Below are positions 8,102 through 40,402 of a stretch of DNA of 40,402 nt, one piece after another. The DNA is taken from IMG/VR virus record IMGVR_UViG_2529292883_000006; one strand, given 5' to 3'. Source of the stretch: a virus (taxonomy: Duplodnaviria > Heunggongvirae > Uroviricota > Caudoviricetes). A model generated the notes under the pieces. The model had not been told where the DNA came from. It did not search any database and saw nothing but the letters and a program-made list of their open reading frames with translations. Both the position numbers and the translations under genes were made by a program. The first letter of the stretch is position 1. Every line of letters starts with the position of its first letter.

Positions 8102-8199
8102 TGGTTTTTTCTCTCTTTTTACATGGAAATAAATAATTTACGAAACACAACCACTAACCGCCAAGCCCCTAATGAAAATTTATACAAGAGGGGAGTTGT

Positions 8200-12462: not shown

Positions 12463-12466
12463 ATCA

Positions 12467-12781
12467 ATGACGACACCAACCAGACGGATAAGTTTCTATC
12501 TGAAGCCCGCCGTCGTCAAGAGCGAACGGGAGGCGTGCAGCTACCTCGACAGCCTGCCAGCCTCCGAACGCAGCCGCGCACAACGCGCGGCTTTTCTGGC
12601 CGGACTGGCTCTTATAAAACGCACCCCCGCGTTGGCGTATTCGCTGGCAGAATGGTCAGAAGACGAAATACGGATGCCACCGCTACCAGTACAGCCTGAA
12701 AAACCGGCGCAACCAGCAGCAGACAGCGCCCCCCATATGCAGCAGGTGAAAAAGAATATTCAGGCGTTTTTCCCGAAGTGA
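12467..12781 (+). CDS. parR: ParR/StbB-like centromere-binding adaptor
   Basis: 104 aa immediately downstream of parM with an AGGAG RBS. The N-terminus RISFYLKP...SERSRAQRAAFLAGLAL resembles the R1 ParR ribbon-helix-helix region. Confidence 0.7.
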   Translation: MTTPTRRISFYLKPAVVKSEREACSYLDSLPASERSRAQRAAFLAGLALIKRTPALAYSLAEWSEDEIRMPPLPVQPEKPAQPAADSAPHMQQVKKNIQAFFPK

Positions 12782-12795
12782 AAACAGGAGTAACT

Positions 12796-13083
12796 ATGTC
12801 CACCATTACCAAAGAATGGTTACAACGTAAAATCACAGAGTTTAAATCGTGGCGCGAAGACATCCCGTTCGGTCTTGATGAAGACGATCACAATATGTTA
12901 ATCGCACTGGAAATCGCACTTGCATCACTGGAAGCAGAGCCAGTGGCATGGATGCACGCAAATAATCCTATTGGAATACCGGCGATAACAAGAAGTAAAG
13001 ATGTTGCAGACAGCTGGCGCTCTAAGGGATGGAATGTATTGCCTCTTTATTCACTGACCCGCTCCATCAATTTATGCCATTAA
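12796..13083 (+). CDS. Hypothetical small protein (95 aa), lower GC than surrounding genes
   Basis: ORF with AGGAG RBS 5 nt before the ATG. Coupled to the downstream Rrf2 gene. Confidence 0.5.
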   Translation: MSTITKEWLQRKITEFKSWREDIPFGLDEDDHNMLIALEIALASLEAEPVAWMHANNPIGIPAITRSKDVADSWRSKGWNVLPLYSLTRSINLCH

Positions 13084-13094
13084 TGGAAGTAATC

Positions 13095-13454
13095 ATGATG
13101 AAAGATAATTCCGGAAGCCAGCGTGCATCAGTTGCAGTTATGGTAATGATTAAATTTGTGAAACAGTACACCGGAAAGCCAATCTCGCTCCGGCAATTAA
13201 GCAAAGAAACCGTTTCACTGTCATATCTGGAGCAAATATTCAGATATTTACGGGAAAGTAGCCTGGTAAAAGCCACACGCGGCCCGGGTGGTGGATATAT
13301 CCCAACAAAAGAAAATTACAGTGTTGGTGATATTGTCCGGGCAATGAAATGTTCCGGATTATATACACAGCACGTTATTCTGGCTGCACTGGATAATATT
13401 TCTTTAACCAGCCTGCAGGAAGACACAAATTATCAGTTGTCTGCCATTAAATAA
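13095..13454 (+). CDS. Rrf2-family (IscR/NsrR-like) winged-helix transcriptional regulator
   Basis: Segment SLSYLEQIFRYLRESSLVKATRGPGGGYIPTKENYSVGDIVRAM matches the Rrf2 HTH signature (compare IscR [33 protein letters not shown]). AT-rich codon usage. Confidence 0.8.
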   Translation: MMKDNSGSQRASVAVMVMIKFVKQYTGKPISLRQLSKETVSLSYLEQIFRYLRESSLVKATRGPGGGYIPTKENYSVGDIVRAMKCSGLYTQHVILAALDNISLTSLQEDTNYQLSAIK

Positions 13455-26300: not shown

Positions 26301-26640
26301 TAAACCGCTTTACATTGATTTGCTCATCACCGGTCGCAATCTCACGCTGAACAGCGCCAGTGAGCCGGTGTTATGCAACAACAGGGAAAGTATTGCCCAG
26401 GACTGCCAGCACGCCATCATTGAGAGCGGACTGGCAACGCGCCTGCTGGCTGAAAAAAGCCCGACACTTCGTGCCGACATCATGATGCAGATGACACTGC
26501 TGATTGAAGATGATGAGCGCATCACACCCGGCACGGTCAGTGTGACAGAAGAAACCCCGCTTTCTGGTCGCCTGCTGATTAGCGCCCACACCGAAGATTT
26601 TTTTGAACCCCTGACTTTTACGGTATCTCTTGATGATTAA
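26290..26640 (+). CDS. Putative baseplate wedge protein (gpW/gp25-like)
   Basis: ~116 aa immediately upstream of the baseplate J-like gene (P2 order V-W-J-I-H-G). Start chosen at the in-frame ATG at 26290. Confidence 0.4.
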   Translation: MHTDKPLYIDLLITGRNLTLNSASEPVLCNNRESIAQDCQHAIIESGLATRLLAEKSPTLRADIMMQMTLLIEDDERITPGTVSVTEETPLSGRLLISAHTEDFFEPLTFTVSLDD

Positions 26641-27817
26641 CGGCAAACCCACCGCAGATTACGAGCGCATTCTGGCTGATAACGGCATGCCGGTAACCGA
26701 AGAACAGGCACGCGCTGAATTTGAAGCCATTGTCAAAGACGAAGGGCTTATCACCAACACATCCCGCATGTCGCCGTTCTGGCGACTGATTACAGCCATC
26801 ACCACAAAACCCGTGATGTGGCTGAAAGATGCGCTGGTTAATGTGGTGATGAAAAACCTGTTTCTGGCCGATGCCAGCGGTGTATTCGTTGATGTTTTTG
26901 CCTGGGCGGTAAACCTGCAACGCAAGGCCGCCACGCACGCAGCCGGCGTGATTCGTTTCACCAAAAACGACATTGATCGCGCAGTTACCGTGCCGGCCGG
27001 TACGCAGATTCAGACAGAACGCATTAACGGCGTGATTTATACGCTGAGCGTTGTCAGGGATACCGTTATTCCGGCAGGAACACTCAGCATGAACATCGAT
27101 GTTTCTGCGGAACAGGCCGGAGCCGGCTTTAACCTTGCGCCGGGATATTACCGCATCCTTCCGGTGGCGATTGATGGTATTGCCGGTGTTGAGAACGATG
27201 AAAACTGGCTGACCACACCGGGTGCCAACGAAGAAAGCGATGACGAGTTGCGTGATCGTGTCCGCAATCAGTTTAATCTTGCCGGCGCTTATCACACCGA
27301 TGCTGTTTACCGGGGATTAATTGCCGGCGTTGCCGGCATCAGTGCCGACCGCATCTATTTTCTGCATGACGCACCACGCGGCCCCGGCACAGCAAATGCT
27401 TACATTCTGCTGGATACCGGCATCGCATCCGAACCGTTCGTTGATGCAGTAAACGCATTCATTAACGATGAAGGCCATCACGGACACGGTGATGATCTGC
27501 GCTGTTTTTCCATGCCCGAAACACGCCACACCCTGACCGTGACACTCTGGTTATATGCAACACTGAACCTCAGCGATGAGGAAATTCAGATGTTATTGCG
27601 CAATGTGGAAAATCTGGTTCGCTGTGCATTTCGCGAAAACAGCGATTATGACGTTCAGAAAACATGGCCGTACAGCCGTTTCAGCATGTCCAGACTGGGC
27701 GAAGAGATCCACCAGGTATTTCCACAGGTGGAGTCGGTTAAATTTTCTCTTCCGGATATTCTCAGTGATCTGGCTGTTCCTCGTCTGGAATCCCTTACTG
27801 TGGAGGTGAGCGCGTGA
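26630..27817 (+). CDS. Baseplate J-like protein
   Basis: 395 aa. Size and position between the wedge-like gene and the gpI-like gene. Confidence 0.55.
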   Translation: MMINGKPTADYERILADNGMPVTEEQARAEFEAIVKDEGLITNTSRMSPFWRLITAITTKPVMWLKDALVNVVMKNLFLADASGVFVDVFAWAVNLQRKAATHAAGVIRFTKNDIDRAVTVPAGTQIQTERINGVIYTLSVVRDTVIPAGTLSMNIDVSAEQAGAGFNLAPGYYRILPVAIDGIAGVENDENWLTTPGANEESDDELRDRVRNQFNLAGAYHTDAVYRGLIAGVAGISADRIYFLHDAPRGPGTANAYILLDTGIASEPFVDAVNAFINDEGHHGHGDDLRCFSMPETRHTLTVTLWLYATLNLSDEEIQMLLRNVENLVRCAFRENSDYDVQKTWPYSRFSMSRLGEEIHQVFPQVESVKFSLPDILSDLAVPRLESLTVEVSA

Positions 27818-28449
27818 AACTTCCGGAGATCCCTGAACTCCCGCTCCCCACCTGGATGAATAAAGGCGAGCCGTTAACGCTGGCACATTCATCGCATCGC
27901 TACTGGGAAAAGGTATACAGCTGGCTGACGTGGCCACTACAGCAGATTGATGTCGACACCTGCGCAGAGCCTTTACTTAACCTGCTGGCTTATCAGCGCA
28001 ATATCACCCGATTTAAAGGTGAGCCGGTTTCGTTATTTCGCTTAAGAGTGAAACACGCGTTTATTAACGCTCAGGACTCTGGCGAACGCGCCGGCTTCGA
28101 ACGCATCTTTAAGCGTCTTGGCGTGGGAGACGTTAAAACACTGGAACGGCAACTGCAGCATGACTGGGACGTTATTTTACTGCGCATTAATGACACCCAG
28201 TTAAGTGAAAACAACGCGCTGATGATGCAGCTCGTGCGCCAGTATGGTCGTACCTGCAGGCGCTATTTCTTTCAGGTAATCAATACAACCACTGCCCGGC
28301 TGACAGCCGGCACATTCGATGGCCATTACAGGTATCACACAGCAGAAGCAACGGTGAGAAAGGACACCATCTGGTTAACCGCTTCGCTACAGGCAGGACA
28401 TTACGGCCTGTCCGTGGAACATTACACATTACAGGCAGATGAAGCATGA
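27814..28449 (+). CDS. Putative baseplate/tail protein (gpI-like)
   Basis: 211 aa, coupled between the J-like gene and the tail fibre gene. Confidence 0.45.
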   Translation: MKLPEIPELPLPTWMNKGEPLTLAHSSHRYWEKVYSWLTWPLQQIDVDTCAEPLLNLLAYQRNITRFKGEPVSLFRLRVKHAFINAQDSGERAGFERIFKRLGVGDVKTLERQLQHDWDVILLRINDTQLSENNALMMQLVRQYGRTCRRYFFQVINTTTARLTAGTFDGHYRYHTAEATVRKDTIWLTASLQAGHYGLSVEHYTLQADEA

Positions 28450-30146
28450 GCACGATTATTACTGAACAGTACGAACACTGGTGCGCAAATCAAATCATCA
28501 GTGGAAAACCTGCGCGCCCGGATACATTTGTTTTTGCATATATTCCGGGACAGGATGAATCCGCAGAGATCCCCCGCGATGAGATACTCCCTGATGAATC
28601 CATGATTCAGTATCGTGCGCCGGTCACCCAGTACGGCCTCCTGTCGCCGAACGCGACCGCGTTTTCCATCATTCTGGACACGACAGTCGGCGACTTCGAA
28701 TACAACTGGATCGGTCTGCTGAACGAAGAAAGCGGCGTGCTCTGCATGATTGCACACACACCTCGTCAGCAAAAAATTAAAACAGCGAACGGCGTGCAGG
28801 GAAACAACCTGATCCGCACATTTTCCATGGAGTTTGACGGCGCAGCCGCAGCAATGCATATCGATGTCAGTGCTGATGTCTGGCAGATTGATTTCACTGC
28901 ACGCCTTGCAGGAATGGATGAGGCCCGCCGGCTGCTGGCGTTTGATCACTACGGTGAAGCCGCTTTTCTGGGGGATGGTTTTCAGGTCAGCTATCAGGAT
29001 GGTACCGCTACTGTTGCCGCCGGCGTGGGTTATGTGGGAGGTCTGCGCATCAGTCTGCGCGAACCTTACAGCCTGCCGGCTGCGGTCGGGGATACCCTCT
29101 GGATTGATGCAAGCTGGCAGGGATTTGTTACCGGCGAATGGAATACCGTTTTTACGTTCTGCGCCCGCCAGGAACATGCGTCCTATACAGACGGTAACGG
29201 CTTCCGACACTTTGTCGCGCCACTTGCGAAACTGACATCAGAAGGCTTACAGGATTTACGTCCACAGACGCCCGATGAAGAACAAAGCAATGCACTGGCA
29301 GAGCACGAAAAATCCCGCCGTCATCCGGACGCAACACTGAAGGAGAAAGGCTTTGCGCAGTACAGCAACTCCACCGACAGCGACGCAGAAGACCGCGCCG
29401 CCACATCAAAGGCAGTAAAAGCCGCAATGGATAAGGCAAAAGGCGCTGTTGAGCGTGACGGCGACACCATGACCGGGGAACTGAAAATCCGTAGTGTTAA
29501 TGCACTGAGGATTTTCAACGAAGCTTTTGGCCTGATTTTTCGTCGTTCTGAAGAGTGCCTGCATCTTATTCCCACCCGGGAAAATCAGGGCGAAAACGGC
29601 GATATTGGCCCCCTGCGTCCGTTCACTATTAATTTGCGGACGGGTGAAATATCCATGTCGCATAAAGTGTCTGTTGGTGGCGGTTCTCAGGTGAATGGTG
29701 CGCTGGGTATCGGCGTTCAGAATGCGCTGGGCGGAAACTCAATTGCTTTCGGGGATAACGATACCGGCCTGAAACAGAATGGTGACGGCCTGCTGGATGT
29801 TTATGCCAATGGTCAGCACGTATTCCGTTTTCAGAATGGCGCGTTACAAAGTAACCGGGCAGTGAATGTTTCAGGGCGGGTAACACCGTCAGACTACGGA
29901 AACTTTGATGCCCGTTACCAGACCAAAACAGGCGGCGTGCAGGATGTGCGTTATGGTTCCGAAATGTATTACAACCCGGGAGGTAACCAGATATCCTGGA
30001 CATTTCGCTCACCTTCAGGCCATGGATTATCTGGTATTAATGTGCAGGAAACCGGAAGTAATTCGGCAGATAACATCGGCGGCGTGTATTACCGACCGCT
30101 TCAGAAACTGATTAACGGCACCTGGTATAACGTGGCGAGTGTTTAA
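28446..30146 (+). CDS. Tail fibre protein 1
   Basis: 566 aa with a Gly-rich C-terminal region, followed by a tail-fibre assembly chaperone. Its N-terminal ~150 aa is shared with the 30707-31903 protein. Confidence 0.7.
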   Translation: MSTIITEQYEHWCANQIISGKPARPDTFVFAYIPGQDESAEIPRDEILPDESMIQYRAPVTQYGLLSPNATAFSIILDTTVGDFEYNWIGLLNEESGVLCMIAHTPRQQKIKTANGVQGNNLIRTFSMEFDGAAAAMHIDVSADVWQIDFTARLAGMDEARRLLAFDHYGEAAFLGDGFQVSYQDGTATVAAGVGYVGGLRISLREPYSLPAAVGDTLWIDASWQGFVTGEWNTVFTFCARQEHASYTDGNGFRHFVAPLAKLTSEGLQDLRPQTPDEEQSNALAEHEKSRRHPDATLKEKGFAQYSNSTDSDAEDRAATSKAVKAAMDKAKGAVERDGDTMTGELKIRSVNALRIFNEAFGLIFRRSEECLHLIPTRENQGENGDIGPLRPFTINLRTGEISMSHKVSVGGGSQVNGALGIGVQNALGGNSIAFGDNDTGLKQNGDGLLDVYANGQHVFRFQNGALQSNRAVNVSGRVTPSDYGNFDARYQTKTGGVQDVRYGSEMYYNPGGNQISWTFRSPSGHGLSGINVQETGSNSADNIGGVYYRPLQKLINGTWYNVASV

Positions 30147-30148
30147 CA

Positions 30149-30700
30149 ATGTTGCATTTAAAAAATATTACTGCGGGCAATCCGAAAACAGCAGAACAAT
30201 ATCAGATGACAAAACAATATGATGTCACCTGGCTTTTTTCGGAAGACGACAAAAACTGGTATGAAGAACAGAAGAACTTTGCCAGCGACACAATAAAAAT
30301 GGTTTACACCGGGGACGGGCGCGTGGTGTGGGTCGGTAAGGATGTGACAGGCATTGAACCCCGTAACGCCAGTGTTATTGAAGTTCCGGATATTACCGCT
30401 AATCGCCGTATTACCGCGCCTGGTTACTGGTTTTACCGCGATGGCAATTTTATCTTCGACTACAAACTTAAAGCGGAAGATGAGCGTGATGCACTGTTAA
30501 AACAGGCCAGCATCATGACCAGCGAATGGGAAAAAGACCTGCTGCTGGGATTAATCAGCGACGAAGACAGGGAGAAATTGAAAGCCTGCCGTATTTATAC
30601 AAAAACGTTACGGGAGATGACATTCAGCCAGGTTACAGATAAAGCATCGTATGCCGCGATTGTATGGCCAGAATTACCGCAGAACATTAGCGAGAATTAA
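30149..30700 (+). CDS. Tail fibre assembly chaperone (Tfa/gpG-like)
   Basis: 183 aa. The C-terminal region DERDALLKQASIMTSEWEKDLLLGLISDEDREKLKACRIYTKTLREM...WPELP is characteristic of Tfa chaperones. Confidence 0.7.
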   Translation: MLHLKNITAGNPKTAEQYQMTKQYDVTWLFSEDDKNWYEEQKNFASDTIKMVYTGDGRVVWVGKDVTGIEPRNASVIEVPDITANRRITAPGYWFYRDGNFIFDYKLKAEDERDALLKQASIMTSEWEKDLLLGLISDEDREKLKACRIYTKTLREMTFSQVTDKASYAAIVWPELPQNISEN

Positions 30701-30706
30701 GAAGTA

Positions 30707-31903
30707 ATGAGCGCACTGTTGACGAAAGCATTTGAAAAGTGGGTTGCTGAATGCACAGCCAGTAATTTACCTGCACGCCCTGACACTATTATTTTTGCCC
30801 TGATGGAGCGGGAACCAACGCGCGAAGATAATACCGTTCCGGAAGAAAAAATCACATATGCTGTGAATGAACTGACCTACGGCCAGTTAAGCCAGAACAA
30901 TATTGTGTGTAGCGCGGTCGTTCCTGATGACTGCGCATTCAGCTATGACTGGATTTGCCTCATCCATCAGCCCAGCGGAACACTATGCGGCGTAATAAAA
31001 ACGCCTGTTCGTCAGAAACATGTTGGCGAGTCACTGGTCAGGAATTTCACGATTACTTATCAGGGCGTGGCTCAGGCTGCGCAGATTACCGTTCCTCCAC
31101 AAAGCTGGCAGGTAGATATTTCTCCTGAACTGAAATCAATGCTGAAAATCCCTAACCGCTTGTCAGAAATTGCGGCAGAAGGCGAAGAGGCGCAACAGGA
31201 GTCCCGCGATAATCTGGGACTGAAAAGCGCCGCCACAATGGAGCCACAGAGTGATATTTATGACCGGACGGAAGGCCGACTGGCGATACCGGGGACACTG
31301 GGTTTTGGTGAAATTTTTCATATTAATGACAGGATTAGCTTTGACACCAGAGCCGAATTTGATACCTGGATAAGAGGCGCAAAACCGGGGCGTTATCTGG
31401 TTTATGCAAACCCCGACATAGTGATACCCAAAGTGCTATTCAGTGGAATTCTTGAAATTATCTGGGCTTCAGCTTTAACTACTACAACTAACGGCGTAAA
31501 CAAGATTTATTTTTTTTACAGTGTTAATGGTGCGGTTTATTACGCCCGTGGCACTTCTACTGTCCCGGCATGGGAACTCTGGAGACGAACAGATAAGGAA
31601 TTAATTGATTTTTTGTCCGGTACAGTTTATTCCGACGGGCTGAATGCATCACCGGAGGCTGGCGGTATTGTTCAGGCAGCATTTCGTTATCAGGATAAGC
31701 CCGGAGGATACACCCTGAAGCGAGGTGATGCTTTAAGTGGTTCACTTCTGAAGCCATATATAATTACAGTCGATGAAAGTGGCGAACAGACTCTTCATAT
31801 TAAAGAGGAACATACGTTTCCCGGATATTACTGGAGTCTGACCTCCTATCCGTGGCTGAAAACGAGTGATTATATTCTGGGAATATTTATAAGGTATCGT
31901 TAA
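30707..31903 (+). CDS. Tail fibre protein 2 (paralogous N-terminal domain)
   Basis: 398 aa. The N-terminus (...WVAECTASNLPARPDTIIFAL...) parallels fibre 1 (...WCANQIISGKPARPDTFVFAY...). Confidence 0.6.
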   Translation: MSALLTKAFEKWVAECTASNLPARPDTIIFALMEREPTREDNTVPEEKITYAVNELTYGQLSQNNIVCSAVVPDDCAFSYDWICLIHQPSGTLCGVIKTPVRQKHVGESLVRNFTITYQGVAQAAQITVPPQSWQVDISPELKSMLKIPNRLSEIAAEGEEAQQESRDNLGLKSAATMEPQSDIYDRTEGRLAIPGTLGFGEIFHINDRISFDTRAEFDTWIRGAKPGRYLVYANPDIVIPKVLFSGILEIIWASALTTTTNGVNKIYFFYSVNGAVYYARGTSTVPAWELWRRTDKELIDFLSGTVYSDGLNASPEAGGIVQAAFRYQDKPGGYTLKRGDALSGSLLKPYIITVDESGEQTLHIKEEHTFPGYYWSLTSYPWLKTSDYILGIFIRYR

Positions 31904-32475
31904 TGAACATTACAGATATAAAAAATCCTGTCAGCCTTGAACACGGGGCGATAAATTGCGAAATATTATTTGACGATATGGAGGAATATGTTCCCTATAC
32001 CGCGACACCGACAGACAGCGATAAAACGGGGAAGCAGGTATGGCAGGAGCTACAAAGCGGTAAATGGGGTGAAATCGCCCCGTTCATCGTCACGCCGGAA
32101 CTTATTTCGGCAGCGAAGAATGCCAAAAAGCGGGAAATTGAGGCGTGGCGTACAGAACAGGAAGCGCAGCCGTTCACGTTCGAATGGAACGGTCGCACCT
32201 GGAATGCTGGCCCCGACTCAATGGCTCGCCTTTATCCGGTGGTAATGGCTGCGAAATCCGATACGGCGCGTGACGTGATGACGTGGGGTGACGCCGATAA
32301 TCAGCAGGTGAAGCTGTCGATGTTAAAGCTTGAAGAGCTGGCTACAGCAATGGCACAGGCGCAACTGAACCGCAACGATGAAATTTATCGACGTCAGCGA
32401 CAGATGAAGGACGTGCTGGATGGCCTGAATAATCTTGCCGACATCCGCGCTTTTCAGGCTGGAGAGTCAGAATGA
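31903..32475 (+). CDS. Putative tail fibre chaperone / fibre-associated protein for the second cassette
   Basis: 190 aa, translationally coupled to fibre 2. Assignment by position. Confidence 0.35.
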   Translation: MNITDIKNPVSLEHGAINCEILFDDMEEYVPYTATPTDSDKTGKQVWQELQSGKWGEIAPFIVTPELISAAKNAKKREIEAWRTEQEAQPFTFEWNGRTWNAGPDSMARLYPVVMAAKSDTARDVMTWGDADNQQVKLSMLKLEELATAMAQAQLNRNDEIYRRQRQMKDVLDGLNNLADIRAFQAGESE

Positions 32476-33185
32476 AATGGGAAAAGGCAATTCTGCGCCC
32501 GTCAGCCATGAACATTAAATGTTCAGTGGTTTGCCTTCATCCATGGTCAGAGAATACCGGAAACATCACACCATCGGGGCGTTATCTCAGCCCCGAAAAT
32601 GCTGTATCTGCACTTTTACCCTATCTGAAAGAAAGCACAGAAAAGGACATTGTGGCGCTGTTATTTTGCGCCCCTTCTGCTGGCGAGTTTTTATCACTCG
32701 CCAGGCAATTTTCAGGCGCTTTTCCGTTGCCAGAGGTGGGGCGAATGTCCCGCATGATTTCCAGTCAACTTTCACTGGCCATCAGCAGAATGCAAATCCC
32801 CGCCAGACCGGCAACATCACTTCCGGAACCGATAATGCTGTCGACACAGACCACTCGCAGCATGTCGCTGGCAGCAACCATTGCACAGGCAGCCACTCCT
32901 GCCGCCACATCACCGGAAACATTGTCATCATTACTGCGTCAGTTCATGAATGCGAGAGATAAAGCCTTACAGGAAATCGCTGATCAGCAGGCTGCACTCC
33001 GGCAAAAATTTTGCCCGGTGTGGCGCTTTTGCTACAAGGGAGCCCTTAGCCAGGCCGAAGTGCTGATACAAAAAAACATCCCACACCCCGAGTGGGTTTT
33101 TACAGCTGTGATGCTGTTCGTCGGCGATAATCTCTCATCACTAAGGGAAGCACTACATGACCCAGATGATTGTCCTTGCGCTTGA
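32472..33185 (+). CDS. Hypothetical protein in tail operon
   Basis: 237-aa coupled ORF. No recognisable family. Confidence 0.4.
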   Translation: MKWEKAILRPSAMNIKCSVVCLHPWSENTGNITPSGRYLSPENAVSALLPYLKESTEKDIVALLFCAPSAGEFLSLARQFSGAFPLPEVGRMSRMISSQLSLAISRMQIPARPATSLPEPIMLSTQTTRSMSLAATIAQAATPAATSPETLSSLLRQFMNARDKALQEIADQQAALRQKFCPVWRFCYKGALSQAEVLIQKNIPHPEWVFTAVMLFVGDNLSSLREALHDPDDCPCA

Positions 33186-33732
33186 CGGGGAAGCCATTCT
33201 GCTGCGCAACATCACCGTCAGCGCCACCATGCAACTACCGGACAAAGATATGTCCGGACAGTCAACCAGCACCACGAGCGCCCAGCAGGGAAACAAGGCT
33301 AAAGAGCTGCGCGTGTCGGGGGTTATTGATTTTAACGATGAAGCTATTCTGACCCGTATTTTTCAGCTTGCGGAGGCAACAGAAAGCAACGGTGCTAAAA
33401 AAACATATCGCATTGCTAACGCTACCGCGAAGGCAATCAATATGCGACAGGGGGTATTTTCTGGTGGCATTGATGCCACGGAACAACAGGGAAAAATGCA
33501 CTGGCAGATCACCTTTACTCTCAGGGAAAAATTAAGCGTGCCAGAGAAAGCATCCGCACGCAGCGGTTCGCAGAAAACCATCGCCAGACAGCAGACCCAG
33601 AATGGCAGCGAACAGGCACCAGACAAAGGCATGAATACGCAAAGTTCGTTCTGGAAAAAAATCAATGATGCCGTTGGCTCTGGTCTGGATGCTGTTGGCA
33701 TCGGGAGCGTGAAAGAGGAAGGGAAAACATGA
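33157..33732 (+). CDS. Hypothetical tail-associated protein
   Basis: 191-aa ORF coupled to the downstream hub-like gene. Confidence 0.4.
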   Translation: MTQMIVLALDGEAILLRNITVSATMQLPDKDMSGQSTSTTSAQQGNKAKELRVSGVIDFNDEAILTRIFQLAEATESNGAKKTYRIANATAKAINMRQGVFSGGIDATEQQGKMHWQITFTLREKLSVPEKASARSGSQKTIARQQTQNGSEQAPDKGMNTQSSFWKKINDAVGSGLDAVGIGSVKEEGKT

Positions 33733-35426
33733 AATTAATACAACGCTGCATGATTAATGGCGAACGGGTGGAAATTGCCGATATAAACCTTGTTCTTACC
33801 CTGAATGCTGCCGGTCGTGGCTTCATTTCTGTTAACAATCTGTCACCAGAAAAAAGCTTTGCCGGCGCAATGGTACAAATTGACCTCGGCCGTGACGGTG
33901 AAGCATGGCGCTATTTCTCCGGCTACATTGAGCGCGATCAACCTGCTGAAAATGGCTCACGTCGTCTTTTTATCCGCGAAGCAGCTGCGGTGCTGGATTT
34001 TGATTTCCCTTGCTCCATGCAACACCCGACATTGCGGGGGGTGCTCGATAATCTGGGGCGACAAAGCGGTATCGTTTTTATCACTCCGGATGCAGATTAT
34101 TCCAGCATACCAACTCCCTATATCACCCACAGCGGCAGCGGGACGCAGTTACTTAGCCAGCTGGGGCGTGCATTCAGAATCAGCGATTACGTCTGGCACC
34201 CTATGCCGGACGGTTCTGTATTTGTGGGAAGCGCAGCTGATTCACGATTTGCCAGTATTACGATGCCGGATATTCCGCAACAGTACACACTCGGGCAAAG
34301 CGGCGGAAACAGCATCGACATCATGTTTATGGAAACTGTGCGACCGGGCGTGAACCTACCGGCAGGGCGCATTACCCGTGTAGCCCTCAACAACGAGAAA
34401 ATGACCCTGACATGGGAGCGCCTTACCGCCACGGGTAACCCTGTTTCCAAATCACCATTACGCAGACAAATGGAAACACAGTTCCCGGAACTGGCCAGCG
34501 GTACGCTACATACCCGGCTGGCGCGCGTCATTGCGCCAACGGAGCCCACCACCCTGGGCGATGTGGCCGACAGTTTCCGCCCACGCTACGCCGTCGATGT
34601 GCAGTTGCTTGATGAGAACGGCAACGATAAAAGCGACACGCCCGTTTACCCGGCAGTACCGCTCCCCGTCCCCATGGCTGGCAGTGAGGCGGGATGTTAT
34701 GCCTACCCGCCAGCAGGCACCATCGTGGAAATATCCAACATTGAAGGACGTCCGGACAAACCTGTTATCAGGCAAATCTTACCCGCTGGCCATAACCTGC
34801 CTGATGTAAAGCCCGGCGAACAGCTGCAGCAACAGCGCGCAGAAGTGTTTCAGCGCGTCACGACTGACGGAAGCTGGCACAGAGAAACCGATCAGCAAAT
34901 CAGGGAGCATTCAGCCAGACGAACCATTAACAGCGATCAGGAAGAACGCACAACAACAACCAGAACAACAACAGTACAGGCAAACGACATAACCAGCGTT
35001 CTGGGAACCAGCAAAGTAATGGCAGGGCAAATAGAGCACCTTACTACCGGCCATTACGCGATCGCAGCCAGTGAGCATATCCAGATGGTAGCGCAGGATT
35101 TGCTGACCAAACTTAAAGGAGCAACGTCAACGATTGAACGTGACCTTACTGAAAACGTGGGAGGCCGCAGAACATGCAGGGCGGACGGCGGTCTGGAGTT
35201 TACCGCCCCGACAGTATTTATTGGTCGCGGTGGCTCACGGGAAAAATCCGGACTTAATCTGCTTACGTTACTGATTGATATTCTGGATCTGATTCAATTA
35301 CTGGCCACACACACCGCAAACCATACCCATAGCAATACCGGCTCACCAACAAACAGCAGCGAACTTGCCGCAGATGCCCTGCAAGCCACGAGGCTGCGCG
35401 AAAAATACGGCGATATTATCGCCTGA
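33729..35426 (+). CDS. Putative baseplate hub / late control gpD-like tail protein
   Basis: 565 aa, last gene of the tail operon, followed by a strong intrinsic terminator. Function inferred from position and size. Confidence 0.4.
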   Translation: MKLIQRCMINGERVEIADINLVLTLNAAGRGFISVNNLSPEKSFAGAMVQIDLGRDGEAWRYFSGYIERDQPAENGSRRLFIREAAAVLDFDFPCSMQHPTLRGVLDNLGRQSGIVFITPDADYSSIPTPYITHSGSGTQLLSQLGRAFRISDYVWHPMPDGSVFVGSAADSRFASITMPDIPQQYTLGQSGGNSIDIMFMETVRPGVNLPAGRITRVALNNEKMTLTWERLTATGNPVSKSPLRRQMETQFPELASGTLHTRLARVIAPTEPTTLGDVADSFRPRYAVDVQLLDENGNDKSDTPVYPAVPLPVPMAGSEAGCYAYPPAGTIVEISNIEGRPDKPVIRQILPAGHNLPDVKPGEQLQQQRAEVFQRVTTDGSWHRETDQQIREHSARRTINSDQEERTTTTRTTTVQANDITSVLGTSKVMAGQIEHLTTGHYAIAASEHIQMVAQDLLTKLKGATSTIERDLTENVGGRRTCRADGGLEFTAPTVFIGRGGSREKSGLNLLTLLIDILDLIQLLATHTANHTHSNTGSPTNSSELAADALQATRLREKYGDIIA

Positions 35427-35463: not shown

Positions 35464-35490
35464 AACGCACGGCACCGGCCGTGCGTTTTT
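35464..35490 (+). terminator. Rho-independent terminator of the tail operon
   Basis: 10-bp stem aacgcacggc / gccgtgcgtt with an accg loop, followed by tttt. Confidence 0.6.
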
Positions 35491-36099
35491 CGTATCTGCC
35501 ACCTGATTAATGCGTTCTGCGTGCCATTCTGGCGCTGTATGCACACACTGCGTAAACGGTGTAACGTAAAGCGTGAGGTGACGTAAACCGCGCTACCCCC
35601 TCCAACCCGCGGGTTTTGTCTCGAAACACTTTTTCAGTTTTCTGCCGTGCAAAAATGACCGCCAGCCCGCGCAGCAACTGAGGGAAAAGCGAAGATCTGA
35701 AATTTCACGTTTTGAAATTTTTTGCAGTTTTCAGAGGGATTTTTACGATCTCATGAATGGCAGGAGAAAGAAAACAGGCTGATATTAAAAGAGTTTTTAT
35801 ACTTTACGTGGGACAAGACACGATCGCGAAAGGATCGCGTTAAACAACCCTCAAACAAAGAAGCCCGACGTAGCGCGGCCTGCGCAAAATCAAGAGTCAG
35901 AATTAAACTGAAAAAAGGATCAATACCGCGCCTCGATAGCACATGACGATCTACGCAGCAACAGGACGAAAAAAACCGGCGCGAACGCCGGCGGAAGCAT
36001 GTATCAAATGCGTGACTGAATAATGTCTGCGGTCGGGAATTTTACATCAGAAGGCTGATAAGTCTCAACGGATTGAAACAAGGGAAAAAACCAGGCTAG

Positions 36100-36460
36100 A
36101 ATTCGCGCGGGTGCCTTTCGGCTGATGGCTGGAGGGAATACCTGAAGGCCGGATGTGGAAAGGCCCCGGAAAACATTTTTGTTTAACCGAGGCCCTAACC
36201 ATCTACCCTAGACAAGTGATAGGTTAGCGCCTCCCCGAAAAAGGAGCAAGCGCTATGTCGCAAAAATCGCTTACGGCCATTACGTTCTGCGTGACGGCAA
36301 TCCTCATCATCTGGATGCTACACGGTTCGCTGTGTGAGATACGGATGAGCTTCTGGGGAGCGGAGTTTGCGGCGTTCTTACAGTGTAAACAGTAAGGAAA
36401 CCGCGACGGGGGAGCAATCCCCCGTCAATCGGTTGCTAAGGTAAGGTCGTAAAGGCACCC
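36100..36460. ncRNA. hok/sok-like type I toxin-antitoxin locus (mRNA with 5'/3' fold-back elements; antisense RNA expected on the minus strand)
   Basis: The 5' element gggtgccttt (36108-36117) is exactly complementary to the 3' element aaaggcaccc (36451-36460), as in hok mRNA fold-back inhibition. A GC hairpin lies at 36405-36426. Confidence 0.45.
36255..36395 (+). CDS. hok: Hok/Gef-family membrane toxin (46 aa)
   Basis: Translation MSQKSLTAITFCVTAILIIWMLHGSLCEIRMSFWGAEFAAFLQCKQ has the N-terminal TM helix and SLCEIR...AAF motif of Hok/Gef. AGGAG RBS. Confidence 0.65.
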   Translation: MSQKSLTAITFCVTAILIIWMLHGSLCEIRMSFWGAEFAAFLQCKQ

Positions 36461-36593
36461 TATCTTCTAACATATGAGTGGAAAATCCTACGGGGAAAAA
36501 TGTAAACCTCGTCCTTGCCCACTCATAAGAAGAAATTATCATTTCACTATTCGATTTTCAAAGAATCAATGTAGGTAAAAAGAAGATAGCTAT

Positions 36594-37166
36594 ATGACTA
36601 AATATATTTTTGCTCTTTATTTTATATTATTTGGTAATACGAAACATCTATTCGAATGCTGGAAAGTTGAAGTCATCCGTCGCGATCGATTTTTAATTCA
36701 TCGCCTACTAAGAGAGAAGAGATCACGCTCAAGAAAATACATCTTCTGGTGGAGACTTGCAAATGAAATGTTTATCCATGGCGGGAAATATACAAAAAAA
36801 GCAGCGAAGAAAATCAACCGCAAATTACTCAGTGAATACAGCTGTGATCTTGGTCTAGGGCTGACCGTTGGCAAGGGTCTGACAATTATCCATCACACGG
36901 GCATCGTTGTTACCAGTACGGCAATCATTGGAGAAAATCTGACCATCAGACAAAATACAACCATTGGTCGTAGTCAATCGGATAATGAACACGATAGAAT
37001 AACAATTGGCAATAACGTTGATATTGGCGCCCACTCATTCATTCTGGGCTCTGGTTTTAAAATTGGAGATAATGTCAAGATCGGGGCAATGTCATTTATC
37101 ATGGATGAAATTCCTTCAAACTGTACTTATGTCACCCGGAAAGAATCAAGGATAATATCTAAGTAA
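36594..37166 (+). CDS. Hexapeptide-repeat acetyltransferase (serine O-acetyltransferase / CysE-like left-handed beta-helix)
   Basis: Repeated [LIV]-G-x4 hexapeptides (GLTVGKGLTIIHHTGIVVTSTAIIGENLTI...IGNNVDIGAHSFILGSGFKIGDNVKIGAMSFI). AT-rich relative to the prophage core. Confidence 0.7.
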   Translation: MTKYIFALYFILFGNTKHLFECWKVEVIRRDRFLIHRLLREKRSRSRKYIFWWRLANEMFIHGGKYTKKAAKKINRKLLSEYSCDLGLGLTVGKGLTIIHHTGIVVTSTAIIGENLTIRQNTTIGRSQSDNEHDRITIGNNVDIGAHSFILGSGFKIGDNVKIGAMSFIMDEIPSNCTYVTRKESRIISK

Positions 37167-37287
37167 AATTAAAACTCAACCAATTACCACAAAAAACGCA
37201 GCGTAAAATCATGTGTTTACTTTTTGCCCCCTTGAGGGGGCATTTAAATATCAACAACATTCACAAAAACGAACTAATAAAACGAAA

Positions 37288-37604
37288 TCACTCCCCATTC
37301 TCCCGCTTCCATTGCTGGATCATTTCATCGGTGACATCACTCCCATAACATATCACGTTATATCCTCCACTACGACTATATGCACTGCGCCACCACATCT
37401 ACTACCATTCCTTGCATAATTATAAGGACACGCACAATTACCTGGATACGATTCAATAGATTCTTTAATTATTTCTTTCTTGATCTGAGCGTCAGACTTT
37501 TCAGTTGCCGCATATCCACCAAAAGACACCAAACAAAGGCAGATTACTATTAATAAACCACATCGCATACAGATACTCTCTATCAATAACCAATCACAAA
37601 TCAC
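37288..37604 (-). pseudogene. Small Cys-rich secreted protein with apparent frameshift
   Basis: The 37353-37604 ORF has a signal-peptide-like N-terminus and Cys-rich motif (GNCACPYNYARNGSRCGG). A second frame starting at the GG stays open to 37288 (RSAYSRSGGYNVICYGSDVTDEMIQQWKRENGE). Confidence 0.35.
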
Positions 37605-37818
37605 CTCATAAATTGATATGAGGAGTGCAACGCCTTAAGCAGGAAGACGCAACCTCGATAATATGCAGTGCAATTCAACAAAAAAAGAACTATATCAAAG
37701 AGATAGCACCCTTATCAGTGCTGCAAACACTAGCGTTTGCAGCAACAAAAAACAACAAATCAGTCGAAATGTGGACACTATGTGGACGCTGATTAAATAA
37801 TCCTTTCCTAATCAACAA

Positions 37819-37846
37819 ATTAATTTCTTGACCTTCCCCTTGCTGG
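37819..37846. repeat. attR core (right copy of 28-bp direct repeat)
   Basis: Exact repeat of 852-879. It is followed by the intact copA promoter sequence. Confidence 0.7.
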
Positions 37847-37860
37847 AAGGTTTAACCTTT
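37828..37860 (+). promoter_or_regulatory. copA promoter with CueR (MerR-type) operator dyad
   Basis: -35 ttgacc followed by the dyad ccttcc-N7-ggaagg (accttccccttgctggaaggt) and tttaacc, ~40 bp upstream of the copA ATG. The long spacer is typical of MerR-family promoters. Confidence 0.7.
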
Positions 37861-37897
37861 ATCACAGCCAGTCAAAACTGTCTTAAAGGAGTGTTTT

Positions 37898-40402
37898 ATG
37901 TCACAAACTATCGACCTGACCCTGTACGGCCTGTCCTGCGGTCACTGCGTTAAACGCGTGAAAGAAAGTCTCGAACAGCGCCCGGATGTGGAACAAGCGG
38001 ATGTGTCTATCACTGAAGCGCACGTTACCGGGACTGCCAGTGCAGAACAGCTGATCGAAACTATCAAACAAGCGGGTTATGACGCATCTGTAAGCCACCC
38101 AAAGGCTAAACCGCTGGCGGAGTCATCAATCCCGTCGGAAGCACTGACAGCGGTTTCTGAGGCGCTTCCGGCAGCGACCGCCGATGACGATGACAGCCAG
38201 CAGTTGCTGCTGAGCGGCATGAGCTGCGCCAGCTGTGTCACCCGCGTACAAAATGCGTTGCAAAGCGTACCGGGCGTCACTCAGGCACGGGTAAACCTGG
38301 CGGAGCGTACTGCGCTGGTGATGGGCAGTGCCTCCCCACAAGATTTAGTGCAGGCGGTGGAAAAAGCGGGCTACGGCGCGGAAGCGATTGAAGATGACGC
38401 GAAACGCCGCGAGCGCCAGCAAGAAACCGCCGTCGCTACGATGAAGCGCTTCCGCTGGCAGGCAATTGTTGCACTGGCGGTGGGTATCCCGGTAATGGTC
38501 TGGGGGATGATCGGCGATAACATGATGGTCACCGCTGACAACCGCAGCCTGTGGTTGGTTATCGGCCTGATAACCCTGGCGGTAATGGTTTTCGCCGGCG
38601 GCCATTTTTACCGCAGTGCATGGAAAAGCCTGCTGAACGGTGCGGCGACGATGGATACGCTGGTGGCGCTGGGTACGGGTGTGGCGTGGCTCTATTCGAT
38701 GAGCGTCAACCTGTGGCCGCAGTGGTTCCCGATGGAAGCGCGGCATCTTTACTATGAAGCCAGTGCGATGATTATCGGTCTGATTAATCTCGGTCATATG
38801 CTGGAAGCGCGCGCACGTCAGCGTTCTTCTAAGGCGCTGGAGAAATTACTCGATTTAACCCCACCGACGGCGCGCCTGGTTACTGACGAAGGTGAAAAAA
38901 GCGTGCCTCTGGCAGAAGTGCAGCCAGGTATGTTGCTGCGCCTGACGACCGGCGACCGCGTGCCAGTAGATGGCGAGATTACCCAGGGCGAAGCATGGCT
39001 GGATGAAGCGATGCTGACGGGCGAACCTATCCCGCAGCAAAAAGGCGAAGGCGATAGCGTCCATGCCGGGACAGTGGTACAGGACGGTAGCGTTCTGTTT
39101 CGCGCCAGTGCGGTTGGCAGCCATACCACGCTATCAAGGATTATTCGTATGGTGCGCCAGGCCCAGAGCAGCAAGCCAGAAATCGGTCAGCTGGCGGATA
39201 AAATCTCAGCCGTATTTGTGCCGGTAGTAGTGGTGATTGCGCTTTTCAGTGCGGCAATCTGGTATTTCTTTGGTCCGGCACCGCAGATTGTCTATACCCT
39301 GGTGATTGCCACCACGGTGCTGATTATTGCCTGTCCGTGTGCGCTGGGGCTGGCGACGCCGATGTCGATTATTTCCGGCGTCGGGCGGGCGGCTGAGTTT
39401 GGCGTGCTGGTGCGGGACGCCGACGCGCTACAACGCGCCAGTACACTCGATACCGTCGTGTTCGATAAAACCGGGACGCTGACCGAAGGGAAGCCGCAGG
39501 TTGTCGCAGTGAAAACATTTGCTGATTTTGACGAAGCGCAGGCGCTGCGTCTGGCGGCGGCACTGGAACAAGGTTCCAGCCATCCGCTGGCGCGGGCGAT
39601 CCTCGATAAAGCAAGCGATATGCAGCTGCCGCAGGTCAACGGTTTCCGCACATTGCGCGGGCTGGGCGTGAGCGGTGAAGCTGAAGGTCATGCGTTATTG
39701 CTGGGCAATCAGGCGCTGTTAAATGACCAGCAAGTTGATACTAAAGCGATTGAAGCAGATATTTCAGCTCAGGCATCGCAAGGGGCAACGCCTGTGCTGC
39801 TGGCGGTTGACGGGAAAGCGGTAGCCCTGCTGGCTGTACGCGATCCGTTGCGTAGTGATAGCGTGGCGGCGCTGCAACGTCTGCATAAAGCGGGATATCG
39901 TCTGGTGATGTTGACCGGGGATAACCCAACCACCGCCAATGCGATCGCCAAAGAAGCCGGGATTGATGAGGTGATAGCCGGGGTGCTGCCAGACGGTAAA
40001 GCCGAAGCGATCAAACGTCTGCAAAGTGAAGGACGTCAGGTGGCAATGGTGGGCGACGGCATTAACGACGCGCCAGCGCTGGCCCAGGCGGATGTCGGCA
40101 TTGCAATGGGCGGCGGCAGTGATGTTGCCATTGAAACCGCGGCGATTACCCTGATGCGCCATAGCCTGATGGGCGTTGCGGATGCGCTCGCTATTTCCCG
40201 CGCAACGCTGCGCAACATGAAGCAGAACCTGCTCGGCGCGTTTATCTACAACAGTATCGGTATTCCGGTCGCCGCCGGTATTTTGTGGCCGTTTACTGGA
40301 ACACTGCTTAACCCGGTAGTTGCCGGAGCGGCAATGGCGCTCTCGTCGATTACCGTAGTGAGTAACGCCAACCGGTTGCTGCGGTTTAAACCGAAGGAAT
40401 AA
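37898..40402 (+). CDS. copA: Copper-exporting P1B-type ATPase CopA
   Basis: 834 aa. Two N-terminal GMxCxxC metal-binding motifs (GLSCGHC, GMSCASC), CPC in the TM domain, DKTGT phosphorylation motif, GDGINDAP. Stop at the window end. Confidence 0.95.

Follow-up and report, generated by a model that had tools for sequence, protein, structure and literature searches.

Two fibre cassettes in one operon

Why should a phage of a type that carries a single tail fibre encode two, each followed by an assembly gene of its own, and how might the second be used? The question is raised by a window of 40,402 nucleotides (the whole stretch of DNA analysed), which is an Escherichia coli prophage of an HP1-like temperate myophage (Peduoviridae; HP1/P2-type). 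The prophage is integrated between glsA and copA; as relatives occupy at least four distinct chromosomal sites (flk, serS, sufA, glsA), the lineage has been mobile. The tail genes of HP1 and ESSI2_ev040 follow the plan J-I-fibre-Tfa-orf33-34-35, that is, with a single fibre. In the prophage (Table 1) the Baseplate_J gene has the position of HP1 orf29 and ESSI2_ev040 gp07, the gpI-like protein shows 45-50% identity to HP1 orf30 and ESSI2 gp06 and runs on for a further 19-37 aa at its C-terminus, and the orf33-34-35 order matches both phages. The J-like and gpI-like proteins are presumed to be the docking platform for the fibres. Relative to this plan, the genes for fibre 2 and a DUF4376 protein are inserted between Tfa and the orf33 homologue, and a second anchor copy was absent from all 66 HP1-like phage records that matched the anchor, each of which had one.

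The two fibre and chaperone cassettes at 28446-32475 were recovered with exactly the coordinates and fibre lengths (566 and 398 aa) of the original prediction; all four open reading frames are intact, lie on the plus strand and form one operon. Their starts and stops overlap or are 2-6 nt apart: the stop of the gpI-like gene overlaps the start of fibre 1 (ATGA), Tfa starts 2 nt past the fibre 1 stop, and the fibre 2 stop overlaps the DUF4376 start (TAATG). Neither promoter-like nor plus-strand terminator-like sites were found between the cassette genes, and this layout makes co-expression and dual specificity the natural reading of the sequence.

Table 1. Features of the tail region and of the two fibre cassettes
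Feature	Position	Strand	Evidence or remark
Baseplate J-like wedge protein	26630..27817	+	PF04865 Baseplate_J, E 4e-31
P2 gpI-like tail protein	27814..28449	+	PF09684 Tail_P2_I, E 7e-5; phrog_1228, E 8e-82
Fibre 1, conserved primary tail fibre, 566 aa	28446..30146	+	
Fibre 1 PF12571 anchor, aa 3-157	28452-28916	+	Pfam
Fibre 1 HP1-type proximal region, to about aa 300			Alignment with ESSI-2 and HP1 fibres over 280-340 aa
Fibre 1 Phage_fiber_2 repeat, aa 297-335	29334-29450	+	Pfam
Fibre 1 Mu gpS-like receptor-binding end, aa 342-565	29469-30140	+	PDB 5yvq (Mu tail fibre protein S), E 1.4e-18
Tfa, tail fibre assembly protein for fibre 1, 183 aa	30149..30700	+	PF02413 Caudo_TAP, E 1.4e-22; phrog_136, E 3e-58
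Fibre 2, short accessory fibre, 398 aa	30707..31903	+	
Fibre 2 diverged PF12571 anchor, aa 1-145	30707-31141	+	Pfam
Fibre 2 conserved linker LSEIAAEGEEAQQESRDNLGLK, aa ~149-178	31151-31240	+	Alignment
Fibre 2 globular domain, named D1 here, aa ~179-292			
Fibre 2 tip domain, aa ~293-398			Terminal motif G(L/I)F(I/V)R
Exchangeable module: linker, D1, tip and N-terminal ~100 chaperone codons	31152..32200	+	Nucleotide identity to L007
DUF4376 protein, presumed fibre 2 chaperone, 190 aa	31903..32475	+	PF14301, E 4e-15; phrog_1141, E 2e-84
HP1-type tail/baseplate genes after the cassettes	32472..35426	+	PF25759, E 1e-53; phrog_2258, E 4e-231
orf33 homologue	32472-33185	+	
HP1_ORF34	33157-33732	+	
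orf35-like baseplate protein	33729-35426	+	
Strongest terminator-like hairpin, end of tail operon	35464..35487	+	10-bp stem, 7 G-C pairs, then T run

Most of the fibre 1 gene is 98-100% identical at the nucleotide level to its relatives, and its C-terminus together with Tfa shows about 89% nucleotide identity to phiP27 L54-L55. The domain layout of fibre 2 was derived from alignments with 15 and with 70 homologues. An AlphaFold2 model of fibre 2 had an overall pLDDT of 57, in which the C-terminal blocks 201-300 (52-90) and 311-398 (57-85) were moderately confident, and searches of the PDB by sequence and by fold gave no match. As predicted, a chaperone-like gene follows each fibre. The two belong to the Caudo_TAP and DUF4376 families, and neither BLASTP nor an hhalign comparison of profiles (probability 0.3%) relates them to each other. 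DUF4376 proteins were experimentally shown to be required for the folding of gp26 of Alteromonas phage V22 and of the Campylobacter CJIE1 H-fibre (PMC7289586, PMC7882524), and by analogy the DUF4376 protein of the prophage is presumed to be the chaperone of fibre 2. A similarity of DUF4376 to the C-terminus of TfaMu has been claimed (PMC7882524); it was not reproduced here, as neither a sequence profile nor Foldseek with a model of pLDDT 81 gave a PDB match.

The two anchors and where they may dock

The original prediction also held that the fibres share an N-terminal region and have unrelated C-terminal domains. Pairwise alignment bears this out, with 35% identity over 160 residues (E 2e-24) and nothing aligned outside the N-termini. 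Both N-termini match PF12571 (the phage tail-collar fibre N-terminal domain, or DUF3751), fibre 1 with E 2.5e-29 and fibre 2 with E 2.8e-11, and no direct repeat of the two anchors was found at the DNA level. Judged by sequence, the similarity of the anchors is far above chance but old. The fibre 2 anchor is 26-30% identical to those of HP1 and ESSI-2, whereas the fibre 1 anchor is 40-48% identical to them; since the fibre 1 anchor is closer to that of HP1 than to anchor 2, the shared N-terminus does not stem from a recent duplication. PF12571 is described as the ~150-160-aa part by which fibres of P2 gpH, R-pyocins and tailocins attach to the baseplate (PMC7882524, PMC4684702, PMC13280938).

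We consider it fairly probable that two different receptor-binding fibres are produced from the late tail operon, both made and docked on one baseplate, and that tips are exchanged by recombination. Fibre 1 would be the resident conserved fibre, in which a proximal shaft of the HP1 type joins a gpH-type DUF3751 anchor to a Mu-S-like tip, folded with the help of the Caudo_TAP assembly protein. Fibre 2 would be a short accessory fibre whose 145-aa DUF3751 anchor has diverged and is followed by a universal linker and a receptor-binding end of two domains, folded with the help of the DUF4376 chaperone. Both would trimerise and, via their paralogous anchors, attach to the gpJ/gpI wedge of a single baseplate, and the virion would thereby gain one conserved and one strain-specific specificity. 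The sequences show intact genes, their domains and their arrangement in the operon, conservation across the lineage, an anchor under purifying selection and the limits of the recombined segment; expression, chaperone function, docking site and receptors are inferred. Docking on the baseplate, in particular, is proposed purely from membership of the domain family, at 26-35% identity to anchors of the characterised type.

Six fibres are carried by P2-type baseplates (compare the R-pyocin structure cited in PMC13280938), and both fibres of the prophage might compete for the same six gpI/gpJ sites, giving random mixtures per virion (a form of bet-hedging) in place of two full sets. We regard this as the less probable arrangement, though one to be taken seriously. 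The anchors are of one domain family and, when aligned with those of HP1, ESSI-2 and sister prophages, keep 22 invariant positions, including W-Q-x-D at the domain end; in addition, J and I are ordinary orthologues of those of single-fibre phages, with no extra domain apart from the short gpI tail. However, anchor 2 is only 26-35% identical to HP1-type anchors, which are 40-48% identical among themselves, and it carries two deletions; this would be unexpected for a shared site. It also varies by 4-29% at the nucleotide level among prophages in which J, I and anchor 1 are at least 97% identical. Relative to other HP1-type anchors it has lost about 12 residues, and a proximal region of ~140 aa, common to all HP1-type primary fibres, is missing from fibre 2. 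With both losses, fibre 2 may bind at another site than fibre 1, or not to the baseplate at all, and we lean slightly towards separate docking sites for the two fibres rather than the same six.

That fibre 2 sits off the wedge altogether, branching from fibre 1 or placed elsewhere on the tail (neck or collar) as an accessory whisker, appears unlikely. Other phages do have branched fibres (LtfA/LtfB of DT57C and the CBA120 tailspikes, for example), the missing proximal region would fit such a position, and the top PDB folds of the fibre 2 model are neck and connector proteins of Sf14 and Bas63. These fold matches are, however, below significance (E 0.03-0.2) and involve a region modelled with low confidence (pLDDT was 42-59 for the anchor itself), fibre 1 has no evident motif for docking another fibre, and wherever PF12571 was tested, the reports cited above describe it as an anchor to the baseplate.

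Distribution, selection and exchange

Among 5,426 complete E. coli genomes about 47 carry anchor 1 and about 48 anchor 2, mostly under the same accessions, and both anchors were also found in E. albertii. The second fibre slot is thus a standing trait of the prophage lineage in these two species, and the alternative offered in the original prediction, a recently acquired host-range module, does not hold for the slot as a whole; what looks recently exchanged, from the pattern of nucleotide identity, is only the receptor-binding part with the first ~100 chaperone codons. Sister prophages are 97-100% identical from J through Tfa and from orf33 on, but only ~50-65% identical across about 30980-32180, the hypervariable island of the tail module. 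The exchangeable module coincides with this island, and is 93% identical at the nucleotide level to locus L007 (96-100% in most 100-nt windows), against 54-79% outside it. At least 20 tip types (70% identity clusters, 117 homologues) were found on the same anchor.

The DUF4376 protein is similarly divided: its first ~60-100 residues change together with the fibre tip, while the C-terminal part is conserved throughout the lineage. For tips of 94-99% identity, the chaperones match at 92-100% of their first 60 residues and at only 76-87% of the rest (Spearman rho 0.64, p 3e-4). This covariation could reflect mere physical linkage inside one recombination block. In the proposed model, host range would evolve by homologous recombination with a left crossover within the anchor or linker and a right one within the DUF4376 gene, in its conserved C-terminal half, so that a tip would be swapped along with its tip-specific chaperone N-terminus.

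It is quite improbable that the fibre 2 and DUF4376 genes are a non-functional leftover of recombination, with fibre 1 alone in use. Damaged forms do occur: in one Logan assembly the fibre 2 gene is frameshifted after residue 268, the E. albertii gene encodes 285 aa only and has no DUF4376 partner, and the CP131_Sichuan prophage is an IS1-truncated remnant. Yet the gene is intact here and in sampled relatives (ORFs of 645-683 aa, though PGAP labels them 'pseudogene'), and more than 100 full-length homologues were found. Furthermore, anchor 2 is under purifying selection, with dN/dS of 0.09-0.27 in 21 locus pairs (dS 0.09-2.3), where dS of anchor 1 within E. coli is at most 0.01; and tips that keep being replaced together with matching chaperone N-termini mark a host-range gene in use.

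Comparison with known systems

The four-gene design is already known, because phiP27 (L54-L57), Rac-SA53 (tail1-tail4) and the 'Actinobacillus' phage vB_Apl-pPE4 (gp67-gp70) have the same order of fibre, Caudo_TAP Tfa, second fibre and DUF4376 gene, likewise downstream of baseplate J and I-like genes. The fibre 1 C-terminus and Tfa are ~84-90% identical at the nucleotide level to those of the three phages, and their second fibres have the linker, D1 and tip architecture of fibre 2, which is 32% identical in amino acids to phiP27 L56. Their tail types differ from the HP1-like tail found here (phiP27, for example, has a Mu gp48-like wedge). Their second fibre carries a PF08400 anchor unrelated to the N-terminus of their own first fibre, which indicates that a second fibre needs no primary-fibre anchor, whereas here it carries a diverged copy of the PF12571 anchor family of the first. 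This paralogous anchor is the only unusual element. A second fibre with its own chaperone and a receptor-binding end freely swapped among phages is a real and fairly ordinary phage route to wider or changed host range.

Alternative tips with cognate chaperones on a constant N-terminus are likewise found in Mu G (S-U / S'-U'), P1 C and P2-like invertible fibres, and Mu gpS is a homologue of the fibre 1 tip. Mu has a single copy of the constant part and selects between the alternatives by Gin-mediated inversion; in the prophage an anchor is encoded in each fibre gene, and the second chaperone is of another family. Despite the likeness in logic (constant anchor, alternative tip and chaperone), expression of the cassettes in alternation through an unrecognised switch of the Mu G or P1 C kind is highly improbable, as the integrase at 938-1975 is the sole recombinase in the window, with no serine recombinase or invertase found, the cassette flanks hold no inverted repeats longer than chance (best 28 nt at 71%), both as predicted, and the cassettes are co-oriented, each with a complete anchor and start codon and with no promoter-like or plus-strand terminator-like site separating them.

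As in P2 gpH/gpG, R-type pyocin Prf15/Prf16 and Pseudomonas and Xenorhabdus tailocins, a DUF3751 anchor of ~150-160 aa, a variable end and a chaperone directly downstream are found here. One DUF3751 fibre per particle is described in the available text on these systems, compared with two DUF3751 genes in the operon of the prophage. The E. albertii 285-aa variant recalls the short 'a-type' DUF3751 proteins described in one report (PMC4684702). A protein of ~190-240 aa with a C-terminal DUF4376, encoded directly after a fibre gene, is shared with Alteromonas phages V22 (gp27) and A5 (gp9) and with Campylobacter CJIE1, whose H-fibre also has a DUF3751 anchor, although outside the Pfam domain no sequence relation to these chaperones was detected. 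A counterpart of the exchangeable module was found in the E. coli prophage fibres at locus L007 (P0019, with the DUF4376 protein P0123), in which the linker, D1, tip and chaperone N-terminus sit on a PF08400 'prophage tail fibre N-terminal' anchor. This is a different anchor domain, that of lambdoid side tail fibres, and it docks on a different kind of tail.

Two fibre cassettes in a single-fibre body plan

The prophage, which is about 35 kb long and inserted between glsA and copA, carries an integrase, a P2 gpA-type replication protein, portal, terminase and a DUF2586 sheath. Its tail genes, assigned from Pfam and PHROG matches and by side-by-side comparison with HP1 and ESSI2_ev040, run in the order tape measure, DUF2590, J, gpI-like, fibre 1, Tfa, fibre 2, DUF4376, orf33 homologue, HP1_ORF34 and an orf35-type baseplate protein. 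This is the tail order of the HP1-like Peduoviridae, and the sole difference is the extra pair of fibre 2 and DUF4376 gene; in Haemophilus phage HP1 and Escherichia phage ESSI2_ev040 (Peduoviridae) the order is the same but the fibre 2 position is empty. Since the order is otherwise that of these two phages, the second cassette is an addition to the single-fibre body plan. When the N-terminal domain of fibre 2 (anchor 2) was used as a tblastn query against 50,697 phage records, 66 HP1-like matches were obtained, each in one place and at no more than 31% identity.

Positions of the genes and features discussed (window coordinates unless another locus is named)
Feature	Position	Strand	Remarks
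glsA	1-669	-	flanking gene
Tyrosine integrase	938-1975		sole recombinase
SPFH/Band-7 domain protein	6165-6995		early region; E 8e-31
Ash-family protein	7049-8203		adjoins SPFH/Band-7 gene
ParM/StbA, StbB-like and Rrf2-family genes	11503-12781 and 13029-13454
Baseplate J	26630-27817		directly upstream of gpI-like gene
gpI-like gene	27814-28449		directly upstream of fibre 1
Fibre 1	28446-30146	+	566 aa, uninterrupted ORF
Anchor 1 (in fibre 1)	28446-28925	+
Tfa, Caudo_TAP (PF02413)	30149-30700	+	183 aa; E 1.4e-22
Fibre 2	30707-31903	+	398 aa, uninterrupted ORF
Anchor 2 (in fibre 2)	30707-31141	+
Exchange island	31152-32200
DUF4376 protein (PF14301)	31903-32475	+	190 aa, uninterrupted ORF
orf33 homologue	32472-33185		237 aa
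Strongest terminator-like hairpin	35464-35487		3' of last tail gene
Low-GC cargo	36000-37900		GC 0.40-0.44
hok/gef-like ORF	36255-36395		46 aa; in low-GC cargo
Hexapeptide-repeat acetyltransferase	36594-37166		resembles EpsC, CysE, WcaB, all below family cut-offs
83-aa ORF	37353-37604	-	in low-GC cargo
copA	37898 onward		flanking gene
Sister fibre 2 ORF, L003	8262-10301
Sister fibre 2 ORF, L001	8262-10313
Sister fibre 2 ORF, L005	7262-9310
Sister fibre 2 ORF, L004	7262-9199
E. albertii NBRC 107761 fibre 2 region, L010	6001-7941

The original prediction was of two consecutive cassettes, each made of a fibre and its own chaperone-like gene, and all four ORFs are indeed present where they had been placed, with none interrupted. 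The two fibres do share their N-terminus, as proposed (35% identity over 160 residues, E 2e-24, with both matching PF12571, the DUF3751 family), and align with each other at the N-termini only, which bears out the claim that their C-termini are unrelated. Fibre 1 is followed by a Caudo_TAP gene and fibre 2 by a DUF4376 gene. Membership of Caudo_TAP is limited to the Tfa gene, the DUF4376 gene having no PF02413 match, and no similarity between the Tfa and DUF4376 proteins was detected by BLASTP or profile comparison (hhalign probability 0.3%). The cassette genes are packed for coupled translation, with an ATGA overlap between the gpI-like gene and fibre 1, a Tfa gene that lies 2 nt from fibre 1 and 6 nt from fibre 2, a TAATG overlap of the fibre 2 stop with the DUF4376 start, and a second ATGA overlap between the DUF4376 gene and the gene that follows. 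No promoter-like or plus-strand terminator-like sites were found between the cassette genes.

In fibre 1 the PF12571 domain spans aa 3-157 (E 2.5e-29) and in fibre 2 aa 3-141 (E 2.8e-11), both exceeding the gathering score of 23 bits. Residues 1 to 280-340 of fibre 1 align with the fibres of ESSI-2 (42%) and HP1 (37%), and its last ~220 residues (aa 342-565) are homologous to the Mu tail fibre protein S (5yvq_A residues 268-503; E 1.4e-18, a value for the whole sequence). The C-terminal part of fibre 1 together with Tfa is about 89% identical in nucleotides to L54-L55 of phiP27. Fibre 1 is the resident fibre and, judging from its likeness to Mu gpS, its receptor may be the LPS core.

Fibre 2 resembles fibre 1 in its first 145 residues only, and Pfam places PF12571 there in lieu of PF08400. 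Its anchor, shorter by about 12 residues, is 35% identical to that of fibre 1, 30% to that of ESSI-2 and 26% to that of HP1, whereas the latter three are 40-48% identical among themselves; by these identities, anchor 2 is the outlier of the HP1-type anchor family. The linker that follows, LSEIAAEGEEAQQESRDNLGLK, is nearly invariant across homologues. The two successive C-terminal regions, which we call D1 and tip, had no match in Pfam, NCBIfam or PDB, and the tip terminates in G-L/I-F-V/I-R. Searching solved structures with the fibre 2 sequence, and with a profile of seven anchors, gave nothing useful. An AlphaFold2 model of fibre 2, predicted as a monomer only and from 71 sequences, had a mean pLDDT of 57, with D1 and tip moderately confident and the anchor at 42-59; Foldseek retrieved nothing from PDB with it at E <= 0.001 and other tail fibres only from BFVD. 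The best PDB fold matches of the model were small neck or connector proteins of phages Sf14 (9c39_K) and Bas63 (9mt4_I), whose E values of 0.03-0.2 are not significant and make them a weak lead on fold only. A protein from a Logan assembly (P0001) is 100% identical to fibre 2 over residues 1-268 and is then frameshifted, either by sequencing or assembly error or as a naturally inactivated allele.

The chaperone-like gene of the second cassette

The DUF4376 protein matches PF14301 over aa 70-174 (E 4e-15; score 56.6, cut-off 25), and with a length in the range of ~190-240 aa typical of the class, a C-terminal PF14301 domain and a start codon that overlaps the fibre 2 stop it has the layout of gp27 of Alteromonas phage V22. 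It was shown that the function of V22 gp26 requires the DUF4376 protein encoded after the fibre gene (PMC7289586, PMC10579305). PMC7882524 describes the same requirement for the Campylobacter CJIE1 H-fibre, itself DUF3751-anchored, and states that DUF4376 equals the TfaMu C-terminus. That relation was not reproduced here by sequence, profile or fold search: the DUF4376 protein had no PDB match by phmmer or profile at E <= 1-10, and its AlphaFold2 model (pLDDT 81) retrieved no solved structure with Foldseek at E <= 0.001, 5yvq not being among the matches. In eight fibre/chaperone pairs, tips that are 94-99% identical go with first 60 residues of the chaperone that are 92-100% identical, and the remainder of the protein is 76-87% identical without tracking the tip. 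A tip-specific chaperone head would fit this covariation, which linkage alone could also explain. DUF4376 chaperones, previously studied in Alteromonas and Campylobacter, are common in E. coli prophages.

The second slot across the lineage

Among 5,426 complete E. coli genomes, anchor 1 was found in about 47 and anchor 2 in about 48, with largely overlapping accession lists, and the E. albertii type strain carries both. When GTDB was scanned for anchor 2, each species being represented by one genome, E. albertii was the sole match, and at the sensitivity of that scan this anchor type looks confined to Escherichia. The lineage has moved, since its sister prophages occupy sites next to flk, serS, sufA or glsA. 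In the sampled sister prophages the fibre 2 ORF is intact, measures 645-683 aa and contains two D1 domains in tandem. RefSeq/PGAP splits it in L001, L003 and L005, and likewise in L006, into two "incomplete" pseudogene pieces, one of which is named "shikimate transporter"; these pseudogene labels on long genes look like an annotation artefact. The majority of 117 near-full-length homologues measure 400-430 aa, similar to the window protein, and at least 20 tip types (clusters at 70% identity) were counted among the 117 on one MSALLTKAFEKW anchor. Across seven loci, anchor 2 has a dN/dS of 0.09-0.27 at a dS of 0.09-2.3, and anchor 1 is almost invariant (dS <= 0.01 within E. coli). The second slot is a trait of the lineage and is probably in use.

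Among the E. coli sister prophages, the dS of anchor 2 is 0.09-0.73 as against <=0.01 for anchor 1, located 2 kb upstream, an excess of 10 to more than 70 times, and the identity of anchor 2 drops as a gradient from 5' to 3'. The excess and the gradient imply that recombination has broken the anchor at many points and that its alleles come from a deep pool, of which no other carriers were found. In E. albertii NBRC 107761, fibre 2 has just 285 aa, consisting of the anchor and a short stretch, and is followed by a separate 352-aa ORF that has no family match; the DUF4376 gene is absent. This arrangement may be a two-piece fibre, as with the short DUF3751 proteins of the Pseudomonas tailocin "a-type", or a decayed copy.

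Exchange of the fibre tip and chaperone head

Compared with five sister prophages by sliding identity, the window is 97-100% identical from J through Tfa, falls across anchor 2 and comes down to about 50-65% over D1, tip and the 5' third of the DUF4376 gene, recovers in the second half of that gene, and stands at 96-100% from orf33 on. The exchange island is 93% identical in nucleotides to a locus in which a PF08400-anchored fibre (P0019) is followed by its own DUF4376 protein (P0123), with most 100-nt windows at 96-100% and a collapse on both sides. PF08400, the anchor of lambdoid side tail fibres, marks proteins that have the C-terminal module alone in common with fibre 2. The locus delimits an exchangeable fibre and chaperone unit that moves between unrelated tail types: its left-hand crossover lies in the conserved linker or in the anchor, its right-hand one about 100 codons into the DUF4376 gene. 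Tip exchange probably proceeds by homologous recombination, crossing over on the left in anchor or linker and on the right in the C-terminal half of the chaperone gene, which is conserved. The first ~150 nt of the orf33 homologue, which has no Pfam family and matches only PHROGs of unknown function, vary noticeably more between sister prophages (74-98%) than does the rest of the gene, for which adjacency to the island may be the cause.

The second cassette had also been suggested to be a recently acquired alternative module. For the slot itself this does not hold, as it is a lineage trait seen in E. albertii too; only the receptor-binding part with the chaperone head looks recently exchanged. 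None of the complete E. coli genomes has the window's tip joined to anchor 2, which makes the combination a rare recombinant. A recent duplication of one fibre is rejected, since the anchors share just 35% identity and anchor 2 stands apart from all others of the HP1-like set, and no direct DNA repeat connecting the two N-terminal coding regions was found. An inversion switch of the Mu G, P1 C or Min/Pin type is likewise rejected for want of an invertase and of meaningful inverted repeats. Both absences had already been noted from the sequence: a resolvase/invertase domain occurred in none of the scanned ORFs, the integrase being the sole recombinase, and nothing meaningful was found around the cassettes in direct or inverted orientation, the longest inverted pair having 28 nt, 71% complementarity and arms that lie in fibre 2 and the orf35 homologue. 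Furthermore, the alternative cassettes are co-oriented on the plus strand, unlike the oppositely oriented cassettes of an invertible switch.

Proposed mounting of two fibres on one baseplate

Three papers assign baseplate attachment in P2, pyocin and tailocin fibres to the DUF3751 domain (PMC7882524, PMC4684702, PMC13280938). Both fibres would be made from the late operon, each folded by its own chaperone, and their DUF3751 anchors would probably attach them to the gpJ/gpI wedge, fibre 1 providing a conserved specificity and fibre 2 a rapidly exchangeable one. They may dock at separate sites, compete for the same six, or fibre 2 may be placed elsewhere; the divergence of anchor 2 and the short C-terminal extension of the gpI-like protein are weak hints of separate sites. 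That extension amounts to 19 aa against ESSI2_ev040 and to 37 aa against HP1, two phages with a single fibre.

We suggest tentatively, and with more doubt than confidence, that a minimal P2/HP1-type baseplate holds two complete fibre sets at once through paralogous DUF3751 anchors. If so, anchor 2 would have diverged against the formation of mixed trimers and would bind the gpI/gpJ wedge at a second site. One set would be the conserved Mu-S-like fibre and the other a plug-in slot, supplied with its tip and chaperone head from a pool that also serves the PF08400-anchored fibres of other E. coli prophages. Such a baseplate architecture would be one not previously described for Peduoviridae.

The same four-gene order of fibre, Caudo_TAP, second fibre and DUF4376 is found in phiP27 (L54-L57), Rac-SA53 and vB_Apl-pPE4, but there the second fibre is anchored by a PF08400 domain that is not related to the first fibre, whereas that of the window has PF12571. 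The Mu S-U/S'-U' system follows a similar logic, in which the anchor stays constant and tips and chaperones alternate, although the window has no inversion switch. Because of the phiP27-type order and the Mu logic, the dual-fibre design and modular exchange are already established, and the distinctive feature is that an HP1-type phage has a second DUF3751 anchor, paralogous to the first. Such an anchor was absent from the sequenced phage isolates searched, and the literature on DUF4376, HP1-like phages, two or second tail fibres, phiP27 and DUF3751 returned no description of the arrangement. Fibre and chaperone modules determine the host range of temperate phages and engineered tailocins, and the locus offers a natural case of how two fibres of one anchor family share a small baseplate; it does not overturn current understanding.

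Other genes of the prophage

The prophage also encodes a ParM/StbA actin-like segregation protein (PF06406 and PF21523, E 2e-82), a plasmid stability protein of the StbB type and, after these, a regulator of the Rrf2 family. A plasmid-type partition system would not be expected in an HP1-like prophage that is integrated in the chromosome. The SPFH/Band-7 gene of the early region may belong to cargo or to a defence function. The low-GC cargo that separates the tail operon from copA includes the hexapeptide-repeat acetyltransferase, which, if it acts on polysaccharide, could be a phage-borne enzyme that modifies a surface receptor.
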